Origin: Eledone cirrhosa | Taxonomy: Eukaryota | Assembly: GCA_964016885.1 (NCBI GenBank) | Contig: OZ024754.1 | Span: 43,958,001-44,022,000, forward strand | DNA: 64,000 nt | Direction: 5' to 3' | Part shown: piece after piece, positions 20,248 through 46,381 of the stretch | Position numbering within the stretch: position 1 is the first letter of the stretch | How the letters are laid out: every line of letters starts with the position of its first letter | Program-made: the position numbers and the translations under genes | Notes under the pieces: model-generated | The model's database searches: none | Told to the model about the DNA's origin: nothing | What the model saw: the letters and a program-made list of their open reading frames with translations, nothing else

Positions 20248-20512
20248 AAATAAATGTGTAATAAACAACACAATACAATTATTCCATTTACCAAAGGTTT
20301 CACGAAGACAGGCGAGCTCAACAGAGACGTCTGAAATCGTTTACCAGAAGGAAAAATTTACGATTTCAGACGTTTCTGTTGAGCTCGCCTGTCTTCGTGA
20401 AACCTTTGGTACATGGAATGATTGTATTGTGCTGTTTATTACATATTTAAATAGCTCTTTAGAATACATAGAACACTCTCCTATCCTTTACTCTTTCTAC
20501 GGAAATACTTCA
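20248..20512 (+). mobile_element. Fold-back element, GAAACCTTTGGTA family
   Basis: Inverted arms ~20250-20342 and ~20358-20447, then tail AGCTCT..CATAGAACACTCTC, between (TA)n tracts. Degenerate hammerhead on - strand (CTGGTAA..GAAACCTTTGGTA). Confidence 0.65.
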
Positions 20513-21927
20513 TATATATATATATATATATATATATATATATATATATATATATATATATATATATATATATAGAGAGAGAGAGAGAGAGAGAGAGAGA
20601 GAGTAAGCTATGACAGATTAGGAACGGTATCTAATACTCTGGCAGTATCGGTAGAGCGTTGGACAACATGCTTCGTGGCATAGAGTTACAGCCCGTTACG
20701 TTCTGAGTTAAAATTCCACCGAGGTTAGCTTTGCCTTTCATCCTTACGGGGTAGATAAAATAAAGTACCAGTAATGTACTGGGGTCGATTTAATCGACTT
20801 TCCCCTCCACCCATAATTGCTGGCCTTGTGCCTAAATCATAAACAATTATTATGAATTAACTCTTTGCGGTTTAAAAATATAATATAATTCATTGAACAA
20901 TAATGATAAGGGGGGGGGGGGGGGGGGGCAACTCACCACCAAGTGCGACAATCAGCTGCACCTCACACCTCAAGGGTTAACTGCACAATTTGAGGCAAGC
21001 CAACACGCTCGCACCATTACCACGGGTGATGGCGAGGCTAAGGCGCTGAAATAACCAAGCACCCTCACAGACATCACCTGACACCACTAAGGTGAGGCTA
21101 AGGCACTGAAATAACCAGACACTTTTCCACGGGCATCACCTGACAGCTCAGTAAGGTGGGGGTGATGACGAGGCTAAGGCGCTGAAATAGCCAGGCACCT
21201 TTACGGGCATCACCTGACACCTCAATAAGGTGGGGGTGATGACGAGGCTAAGGCGCTGAAATAGCCAGGCACCTTTACGGGCATCACCTGACACCTCAAT
21301 AAGGTGGGGGTGATGACGAGGCTAAGGCGCTGAAATAGCCAGGCACCTTTACGGGCATCACCTGACACCTCAATAAGGTGGGGGTGATGACGAGGCTAGG
21401 CGCTGAAATAGCCAGGCATCCCCCAAAGGCATCACCTGACATCTCAGTAAGGCGAGTCGCCAGAGATGACATGAACTTCGCTGTCAGCGGCCCAACTCCA
21501 CCTAATATCTCGAACGTCACAAATCATTATTAAGCTGAGTTCAAATCCCGCCGGGGTTCACTTTGCCTTTCATCCATACGGGGTCGATAAAATAAAGTAC
21601 CAGTAATGTACTGGGGATTTTGCTGGCCTTGTGCCAAAAGTAGAAACAATTATTAAGAAATAAATAACGAGAGAGAGGATGAAAGGAGAGAAAGTGATGG
21701 AGTATGTTTAACTTGTATTTATATACATATATTACGTGTGTATATATATATATATATATATATATATATATATAGGTGCGTAGGTACGTATTGTGTGTAT
21801 ATATACAGCGTATACGTGTCTATATATGTATTATATATATATATATATATATATATATATATATATATATATATATATATATATATGTGTGTGTGTGTGT
21901 GTTAATATAAATAGATAAATAGATAGA

Positions 21928-44052: not shown

Positions 44053-46381
44053 CTTTTCTGATACAACTTGACTTAGAATGACACAATGGTTGTCTCTTGG
44101 CTAGTTATTTAACCAGTCTCTAGTTGTTTACTGCTGTGTCTGTGTCTGTGTATGAGCATGTGTGTGTGTCTGTGTGTGAGCATGTGTGTGTGTCTGTGTG
44201 TGTGCGTGTGTGTGTATGAGCATGTGTGTATGTGTATGTATGTCTGTGAGAATGTGTCTATGTATGTGAGCATGTGTGTGTGTGTGTATGAGTCTGTGTG
44301 TATCTGTGTATGTTAGCATGTGTATGTTAGCATGTGTGTGTGTGTGTATGAGTCTGTGTATGTTAGCATGTGTATGTTAGCATGTGTGTGTGTGTGTATG
44401 AGTCTGTGTATGTTAGCATGTGTATGTTAGCATGTGTGTGTGTGTGTACTTGTGTTCTATCCCTGACTTCTTTCTAAGAAATCACAACTTTATGCTTTTA
44501 CTTGTTTGCTTTGAGGCAAATATAATCTTTTAGAAACACAACTTACTACATACTTTCTCATCTCCCACAACACACACTCCCACACCACCCCACCACCACC
44601 ACCCTGTCATCACTACCCCCACCACCTCCATTCCACCATCACCACCCCACCCACCATCACGATTATGACAATCATCACCATAATCATCTATGTCATCAAC
44701 ATATATACATATATATATATACATATATATATACATATATAAACATATATAATCATATATAAACATATATATATACATATATAAACATATATATATAGTT
44801 TTAATATAGATGAGATTCTACAGGACTAGAACTGTTTCATTCTTTATATATATATATATATACACATATATATATATTTACTTAGAAAGTGAACAACACA
44901 AAATATAACTACTCCATTACCAAAGGTTTCTGGGTCCCAGACGATAATAATGTCTTTATCAGTCGTCAGAAAGAGATGTTATCCACAATAATTACATTGT
45001 GTTATTTATGTAATTATATATATATATATATATATATATATATATATATATATATATATATATAATTACATAATAAATAAATAACACAATGTAATTATTT
45101 CATTACCAAAGGTTTCAAGGAAGTAGACAATTCTGAGCACTTGGGAAGGCATGTCTTCTGTTTTACTGCGTAACATCAAAGATCTCCATCCTATATAATT
45201 ATCTTTGAGAGGTTCAGTTGCACAAGGTCAGCTTTTATCACCTCGTCCCAGTTCTTCCTACTCCAAGGCTTCCATCAATTTTGATCTCCCTGCATTTTTT
45301 TTATATAGCTGTCATCCTTCATATGCATCACATGACTATAATAATGTATTTGACTTGCCTAATTCCCCACTTTCTGGGTTGGGCTCAAAACTTTTCCCCT
45401 CACCCCCATATATATATATATATATCATCATTTTACGTGATGATGATGATATATATATATATATATTTATAATTAGAGATCAATTAACATATATATAAAA
45501 TAGACATATCAAACATTGACAGGGGATAATTTGTGAAGAGTGTAAACACACATATTTACAGAGGTAGAATTAATATGCTACCTCTGTAACTATGTTTATT
45601 ATATATATATATATATATATATATATGTATTGAAATTTCCGTTGAAAACAGAAAAGGTCATAGAAGTGAAGAGTGCTCTATGTAAGTACCAGAGCAAAAT
45701 TTAATGTATAAAAATCAATACAATATAATTACCTCATTACCAGAGGTTTTCCGAATGAGGCGAATACGAAAGAAACGTCTTCATTCGTTCGTCAGACATG
45801 GCTAAATACTTGGAAAGTCTCAAGAAAAACAAAAAAAAATATATATATATATATATATCATTCGACCTCTAATTTGTCATAAATGCTCAGATTTAATCCT
45901 TAGAATCTTTGAACTTCTACAGGTGGTTTGTTTGTGATTTTCTCAGACATGACATCTATAATTTAGTTAGTATTATATAGCGGTGGATTGACAGTATCGG
46001 TAGAGGGTTGGACGCCATGCTAGGGCGGTAGATTGGCAGTATCGGTAGAGGGTTGGACGCCATGCTTTCCAGCATAGTTACGTCCCTTTATGATCTGAGT
46101 TCAAATCCCGCCGAGGTTGATTTTGCCTTTAATCCTTACAGGGGTCGATGAAATAAAGTACCAGTAATGCACTGGGGTAATTGCTGGCCTTGTGCCTAAA
46201 GTAGAAACAATTATATAAATATATCTAGATATTAACACCTTTGTTCAACGTAATACTCAATACTTCAGAAAGTAGATTTTCTGCCTGAGTTCTTGCAGTC
46301 GTGACTATATGTATGTAATATGGCAGCTCTGTCTAACTTAAAACTTATGATCAAGACAATTCTATTGAATCTCATGCTTAA

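Follow-up and report, generated by a model that had tools for sequence, protein, structure and literature searches.

A 64,000-nucleotide stretch of the Eledone cirrhosa genome (contig OZ024754.1, positions 43,958,001 to 44,022,000; hereafter the window) carries a family of short repeats, eight arms in all from five loci and a tail-only remnant, which we regard, with a probability of roughly 80%, as the 5′-truncated 3′ ends of Penelope-like elements (PLEs) that belong to one family, or several related families, of the Hydra clade and were inserted into (TA)n. The copies combine inverted truncated arms, a tail on one side and (TA)n targets, and therefore display the published PLE signature: PLE insertions are described as 5′-truncated, often accompanied by an inverted truncated copy, with a tail at one end (Craig 2021, PMC8557442). 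The Hydra entries in the same source are described as inserting into (TA)n in 26 of the 27 listed families, with a palindromic stem III of 9-10 nt and extra bases flanking stem II of the hammerhead, and Hydra-1_Obim from O. bimaculoides places the clade in Octopus. An earlier note on this DNA, made from the sequence alone, had proposed an old, diversified ribozyme-bearing retroelement family. A dispersed retroelement with a type I hammerhead-shaped motif stands, whereas an unusual kind of element found no support; it is likely one more family within a known clade, distinguished by a long stem II and otherwise ordinary.

The repeat family is real. The 13-mer GAAACCTTTGGTA, covering stem III and the predicted cleavage triplet GUA, occurs exactly six times in the window against 0.17 expected, a count that none of 100 shuffles reached, so the conservation of this motif at the sites first listed for it was borne out. 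The tail 13-mer CATAGAGCACTCT was likewise found where a shared tail had been placed, at 20467 (one mismatch), 27176, 23985 (minus strand) and 45670 (minus strand). A profile made from the eight arms recovered those eight alone in the window, the next match having E = 1.8. The arms and their parts are as follows, each exact GAAACCTTTGGTA copy lying on the strand of its arm.

20249..20361, minus: locus 1, inverted short arm, with stem I, mutated core CUGGUAA (20341-20347), a 39-nt stem II and stem III/GUA (GAAACCTTTGGTA, 20289-20301); 3′ end 41 nt past stem III/GUA, in (TA)n.
20362..20512, plus: locus 1, long arm, starting within stem II and lacking the core, with stem III/GUA (GAAACCTTTGGTA, 20399-20411) and the tail hairpin (20454-20477); end in (TA)n at 20513.
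23952..24035, minus: tail-only remnant, identical to the locus 1 long arm at 70 of 84 positions, with the hairpin at 23987-24010; end in (TA)n.
26964..27070, minus: locus 2, inverted short arm, the best-preserved type I hammerhead shape, with stem I of 6+5 bp, CUGACGA (27052-27058), a 36-nt stem II and stem III/GUA (GAAACCTTTGGTA, 27003-27015); 3′ end 40 nt past stem III/GUA, in (TA)n.
27071..27211, plus: locus 2, long arm, starting within stem II, with stem III/GUA (GAAACCTTTGGTA, 27107-27119) and the tail hairpin (27163-27186); end in (CA)n.
44877..44986, minus: locus 3, of the locus 2 subfamily, with CUGACGA (44963-44969), a decayed stem II and stem III/GUA (GAAACCTTTGGTA, 44918-44930); 3′ end 41 nt past stem III/GUA, in (TA)n.
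44987..45014, plus: 28-nt 3′-end piece of the locus 4 type, head-to-head with locus 3 and an inverted repeat of 45065-45099; end in (TA)n (45015-45064).
45065..45136, minus: locus 4, 3′ half only, with the 3′ strand of stem II and stem III/GUA (GAAACCTTTGGTA, 45104-45116) and without the core; 3′ end 40 nt past stem III/GUA, in (TA)n.
45626..45839, minus: locus 5, single arm, with CUGACGA (45789-45795), a 7-bp stem II, a weak stem I, an irregular GAAAACC-UCU-GGUA (45738-45751; a degenerate seventh copy of the motif with an additional A and a UCU loop) and the tail hairpin (45672-45695); (TA)n on each side.

Loci 1 (20249-20512) and 2 (26964-27211) are long head-to-head palindromes that carry the motif twice, on opposite strands, and each of them pairs an inverted short arm with a tailed one. 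An inverted 5′-truncated copy is joined at the 5′ end at these two loci and, as a small piece, at locus 3. The predicted fold energies of the two palindromes are -150 kcal/mol (locus 1) and -138 kcal/mol (locus 2), and because both fold so strongly, an RNA running across both arms is predicted to bury the ribozyme. All copies are shorter than 270 nt, and no open reading frame (ORF) is possible inside them. Copies in the window are dispersed or inverted only, with no direct tandem repeat (partial tandem or pseudo-long terminal repeat, pLTR) of the family. The palindromes, the two fixed 3′ ends described next and the link of the tail to Hydra-clade PLEs are absent from the earlier note.

All four tail-less arms stop 41, 40, 41 and 40 nt past the predicted cleavage site (GUA), directly in (TA)n. 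The three tailed arms extend 101, 92 and 113 nt past GUA, two of them reaching (TA)n and the third (CA)n; their tails are 52-72 nt long and open with a 24-nt hairpin, whose onset lies 42, 43 and 42 nt past GUA. This 24-nt stretch folds as a hairpin in three of four copies, the fourth being decayed. A (TA)5+ run lies 40-113 nt downstream in six of the seven arms that bear stem III/GUA, whereas the background share of positions with such a run is 3.5% for a distance of 45 nt and 8% for one of 115 nt. The adjacency thus exceeds background, which upholds the proposed microsatellite target preference as a (TA)n bias. The wording "always beside (TA)n" holds per locus but not per arm, since seven of the eight arm ends lie in (TA)n and one (27071-27211) in (CA)n.

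The same ends were seen in sequencing run X1, which may share the source of the window and is not independent of it. Among 2014 contigs that map to locus 2, loose contig ends enter (TA)n at two places, just before the hairpin (27162) in 29 contigs and past the tail (27198-27199) in 32 and 34. Summed depth, which does not equal copy number and was used for its shape only, is about 10-fold lower at the core than at the 3′ part of locus 2. Because the contigs show the same ends and this fall in depth, both 3′ ends and the 5′ truncation hold beyond the window.

Comparison with published consensuses linked the tail to the Hydra clade. The Craig 2021 supplement (584,131 characters) contains CATAGAGCACTCT twice, against about 0.009 expected, at the 5′ end of Hydra-1_Ajap and at the 3′ end of Hydra-2_Ajap, after the hammerhead; both are sea-cucumber elements. 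The order in Hydra-2_Ajap is CTGACGA, a palindromic stem III, 38 nt and then the tail hairpin of the family; the match at the start of Hydra-1_Ajap is what would be expected if the tail were the start of the next unit. By eye, a hairpin of this type was seen in four of the six Hydra consensuses, and by hand count its onset lies 38 (Hydra-2_Ajap), 43 (Hydra-2_Amil) and 47 nt (Hydra-1_Crog) past the cleavage site. The inner stems differ yet pair (GUCCA/UGGAC, GCU/AGC and ACACUU/AAGUGU, with GUA/UAC in the octopus family), next to a 2-nt bulge that is mostly AU. Hydra-1_Obim, Hydra-1_Ajap and Hydra-1_Amil end 36-47 nt past the cleavage site, without the tail. Outside its Hydra entries the supplement yielded neither motif of the family, although line breaks can hide matches; the consensuses it contains, and thus those compared, are of Naiad, Chlamys and Hydra, not of Neptune, Nematis or Penelope/Poseidon.

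We tentatively suggest that this bulged hairpin of 24-29 nt, GCUCU-stem-loop-stem-AU-AGAGCACU, might be a clade-wide cis-element of Hydra PLEs that binds the reverse transcriptase (RT)-endonuclease and sets two RT start sites, the palindromes recording two-ended priming; this proposal is somewhat less probable than not. Its range, with paired changes, may cover coral, copepod, sea cucumber and octopus, and each target strand may have copied an RNA of its own, apparently from two subfamilies at locus 3. The hairpin, conserved across phyla and situated right at the short 3′ end, is a ready candidate for a recognition signal. If the proposal is true, PLE inversion, tail formation and microsatellite bias could be tested with one minimal RNA. 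The tail hairpin shared across phyla is the new lead worth following. A literature search found no paper describing it, most subscription journals, Repbase and Dfam being outside its coverage. A viral scan for the tail returned two loci, both lacking (TA)n and situated in phage-like coding sequence; we took them as chance.

The hammerhead itself is mostly decayed. CUGACGA, which the earlier note gave as the closing motif, is intact at three sites, 27052-27058, 45789-45795 and 44963-44969 (all minus; the last had been placed 10 nt off, at about 44973-44979), but this is only three of seven arms. One of the other four has CUGGUAA (20341-20347, minus), and three are cut inside stem II, namely the right arms of loci 1 and 2 and 45065-45136. 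The set of type I core elements (CUGANGA, GAA, A15.1-U16.1 and NUH) is present in three of the seven arms, stem III being irregular in one of them. For the minus strand of locus 2, the core, an interrupted 11-bp stem I, the 36-nt stem II, stem III ACC-UUU-GGU and the GUA triplet are predicted to fold as a type I hammerhead about 1 kcal/mol above the minimum, and the inverted arm of locus 1 takes the same predicted fold with a mutated core. Among the four arms with a core region, stems I, II and III were all predicted in these two inverted arms only; stem II pairing is lost at locus 3, and locus 5 combines a 7-bp stem II with the irregular GAAAACC and weak pairing in stem I. None of the copies of the family satisfied a strict type I descriptor, which picked out only three motifs from other families, and the 116 matches of an Rfam scan of the window (E up to 1) included no hammerhead family, only microsatellite or hairpin matches to microRNA models. 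We consider that the family carries a type I hammerhead-shaped motif and that its genomic copies are likely, for the most part, dead passengers.

Stem II is two-tiered and 32-39 nt long. The fraction of 300 mononucleotide shuffles that folded as well as the stem II hairpin was 0.037, 0.023, 0.067 and 0.56, so the claim that the neighbouring sequence mostly forms a hairpin applies to two of four arms, is borderline in one and fails in the last, which has no hairpin. Nor is stem II uniformly divergent, as had been supposed: the copies at 26964 and 44877 form one subfamily (43 of 51 positions identical upstream of GAAA and 50 of 52 downstream), and AGAC and CGYCT/CATCT are in register in all four arms with a core region. 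Much of the apparent divergence of stem II is truncation, decay and subfamily mixture. Pairing cells make up 83% in these four arms and 31-44% in slid controls. Pairs changed on both sides number two, each in stem I and each in a single sequence, and 93 of 500 shuffles matched this; none is in stem II. Covariation of stem II was thus not significant, and the idea of structure conserved despite sequence turnover was not sustained, in a count of little power because it includes only four sequences, two of them from one subfamily. RNAalifold on the four arms recovered stems I and III and not stem II. X1 variants at 27040 and 27028 fall in one and the same predicted pair of stem II, and at 27027 the majority base restores pairing; being unphased, they were left out of the covariation count. 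Stem II has an invariant G-C pair two positions from the core (columns 23-57), not next to it as in a canonical G10.1-C11.1 closing pair.

Several other hammerhead-like repeats lie in the window. A second family at 14016-14502 forms a head-to-head pair (14152-14206, minus; 14410-14464, plus) with intact CUGAUGA, a long stem II and a palindromic stem III, and these two are better ribozyme candidates than the copies described above. The right arm ends 39 nt past the cleavage site in (TA)n, and the left arm has a 137-nt tail with the motif ACTCC...GTAGAGTGCT at 14072-14099, in the geometry of the main family. A third inverted pair (14976-15346; cores at 15027, minus, and 15149, plus) has a right-arm tail hairpin ACTCT...GTAGAGTGCT (15257-15286), in which an A-U pair replaces the G-C of the main family, and ends in (TA)n. 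A fourth (41351-41565) includes a canonical-looking type I hammerhead (41440-41469, plus) and a tail of about 96 nt reaching (TA)n. A minimal hammerhead family (CUGAUGA, stem II of 4-5 bp) has two copies, at 31506-31534 (plus), about 92 nt before (TA)n, and at 58026-58054 (minus), with a mutated GAAA.

A number of observations weigh against assignment to the Hydra clade. No Pfam RT or GIY-YIG match was obtained in 202 filtered frames of the window (at least 55 aa, with a complexity filter), and the protein features that define the clade (RWK, DKT, the CxCX5C linker and no CCHH) have no linked ORF to bear them; because no RT or endonuclease ORF is linked, the clade assignment is based on terminal anatomy. 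The tails (52-72 nt) exceed the 30-40 bp in print, and stem II is longer than in the listed Hydra hammerheads. Hydra-1_Obim and Hydra-1_Amil have no clear tail hairpin. Hydra-1_Obim also differs in sequence and is another family, and the 13-mer GAAACCTTTGGT is absent from the Craig 2021 supplement, although line breaks can hide matches; for these two reasons the parent is not one of the published consensuses. A metagenome pattern scan gave unrelated matches only (seven loci, of which the six inspected had no (TA)n and no family sequence), mostly bacterial-type coding DNA and, in one case (L001), a short repeat without long ORFs; these were taken as chance. Sequencing runs X5, X7 and X8 (share 0.13), of which X7 was the one possible RNA run, each gave 0 contigs. 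The two-strand priming considered below is based on two junctions, and the 5-nt microhomology at locus 2 has two extra bases.

Hammerheads of PLEs, targeting of (TA)n and a Hydra element from Octopus have all been published; the present copies add an apparently abundant octopod PLE family with a long stem II. O. vulgaris is reported to have 31 recently active Penelope-like families (Bonar 2026, PMC13282606), and that library may hold the octopus family; 235 hammerhead loci are reported from the giant squid (PMC6962438). The origin of tandem and inverted structures and the microsatellite bias are named as open in Craig 2021 (PMC8557442).

Biochemistry of a Poseidon PLE suggests how such copies might arise. 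Its protein is reported to cut AT-rich DNA on both strands and to extend both, with reverse transcription from two internal sites, between which the tail lies. The hammerhead of this element requires protein and is dispensable for insertion in vitro, and the start sites were mapped, in that report, for one Poseidon element only (Frangieh 2024, PMC11167929). By analogy, a GIY-YIG endonuclease would nick AT-rich DNA, and reverse transcription would start at either of two internal sites of a tandem transcript, giving the short or the tailed end, and halt early, mostly at or just above the hammerhead. The tail would be the start of the next tandem unit, and the tail hairpin the putative recognition element. 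Processing of the parent transcript would fall to the hammerhead, probably acting as a dimer or aided by protein. The palindromes would form when both target strands are extended, one per start site, and the cDNAs are joined head-to-head via short microhomology. At the locus 2 junction, TGGAT, which precedes stem I in the sister copy, is complementary to ATCCA at the start of the other arm. The tailed arm is not a fold-back copy of the tail-less arm, because the latter has no tail to copy. Fold-back from the tailed arm, halting at the short end, is possible and would leave the fixed stop unexplained; two primed strands joined head-to-head fit better. The small partner arm of locus 3 is of the locus 4 type but could also be a local inverted duplication across (TA)n.

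The short length of the copies could also be their true size, the family being a non-coding, non-autonomous derivative (retrozyme- or SINE-like; SINE, short interspersed element) moved in trans by the enzyme of a Hydra-type PLE. The absence of an ORF from copies under 270 nt, the fact that most arms begin no more than about 45 nt from the core, the very high summed depth of X1 contigs and the argument that animal retrozymes stem from PLE pLTRs (bioRxiv 10.64898/2026.07.22.740005) all speak for this. Animal non-LTR retrozymes are likewise non-coding and PLE-related, with a type I hammerhead. Tandem monomers, the trait that defines them, are however missing here, and the 5′ ends vary, often falling within the ribozyme, with no common unit visible, so we consider such a derivative unlikely. 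Origin from another hammerhead-bearing, endonuclease-containing clade (Neptune, Nematis or Penelope/Poseidon), the Hydra-like tail being convergent or more widely spread, seems less probable still. Neptune is likewise microsatellite-biased, and the comparison covered Naiad, Chlamys and Hydra consensuses only, but in Hydra consensuses the exact 13-nt match occupies the same place with respect to the hammerhead, and the stem III type is theirs.

Miniature inverted-repeat transposable elements (MITEs) with a TA target duplication, the hammerhead likeness being incidental, would account for the near-perfect hairpins of about 200 nt with TA flanks at loci 1 and 2. We give this little credence: the arms are asymmetric, only one of them being tailed, three loci are single-armed, the inversion points differ, and core, stem I and stem III together make up a hammerhead. 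The MITE reading was rejected, as the single-arm copies largely refute it. Naiad PLEs (Naiad_Obim, Naiad_Ovul) share (TA)n targets, inverted copies, tails and presence in Octopus with the family but lack canonical hammerheads; a Naiad origin was rejected on this ground and because the family motifs were not found in the supplement outside its Hydra entries, a text in which line breaks can hide matches.

Truncated Hydra-clade PLE copies, the reading we prefer, resemble the published Hydra consensuses (Hydra-2_Ajap, Hydra-1_Ajap and Hydra-1_Obim; PMC8557442) in (TA)n insertion, a hammerhead about 40 nt from the 3′ end, a 9-nt palindromic stem III (ACC-TTT-GGT in the octopus family versus ACC-AAT-GGT in Hydra-1_Obim), an extra base after the core and before GAA, and the tail hairpin GCTCT...ATAGAGCACT at equal distance. 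They differ in matching none of the six consensuses, in having no linked ORF, in the two-tiered stem II (4-7 bp with a short loop in Hydra) and in the tail of 52-72 nt. PLE hammerheads are described by Cervera and de la Pena (2014, PMC4209133) as highly variable within one genome and of low activity in vitro; in that account helix II is large, helix III is small and palindromic, an unpaired base follows the core, and motifs are found in pairs, on opposite strands and 100-700 bp from each other. The variability of stem II is thus expected. The family shares with these minimal type I hammerheads the large helix II, palindromic helix III, variability and occurrence as single truncated copies or opposite-strand pairs. 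It differs in the G10.1-C11.1 pair, offset by 1-2 positions (an offset of 1 is usual in the listed Hydra motifs), and in a C-C mismatch in the locus 2 subfamily. The Poseidon PLE of Anolis (PAc, PMC11167929) likewise has two 3′ ends that define the tail, an AT-rich target and a hammerhead upstream of the tail. Unlike in the family, through whose motif no ORF runs, the PAc ORF begins at stem II, and its reverse transcription starts in an AC-rich stem-loop inside the ORF.

Two host genes were located in the window.

13216..13632, minus: TRMT61A exon, outside the element.
23341..44052, plus: exons of an asparaginase/ankyrin gene.

The TRMT61A exon product is 97% identical to that of Octopus bimaculoides and 95% to that of Argonauta hians, whereas named proteins from bivalves and others do not exceed 72%; the window is octopod DNA. 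Introns of the asparaginase/ankyrin gene contain the tail-only remnant and locus 2, the core-bearing arm being antisense to the gene. The window is rich in microsatellites. Short inverted repeats occur at 44987-45099, 24092-24165, 26582-26674 and 45550-45595, the first two centred on (TA)n (tail-to-tail), and long palindromes without a hammerhead core at 16937-17084 and 38891-39083 are possibly MITEs or other inversions. A stop-broken frame (45137-45290, minus) adjoins locus 4; we take it to resemble the 3′ end of an RTE long interspersed element (LINE), which is unconfirmed, a protein search having given no match. A dispersed repeat of about 200 nt with many copies (20620-20800, 38398-38619, 46023-46235 and others) is presumably an octopus SINE. 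Near-perfect hairpins at 26964-27211, 38891-39083 and 41351-41506 are situated inside introns of the asparaginase-like gene and, speculatively, would give long double-stranded pre-mRNA that might serve as a substrate for A-to-I editing.

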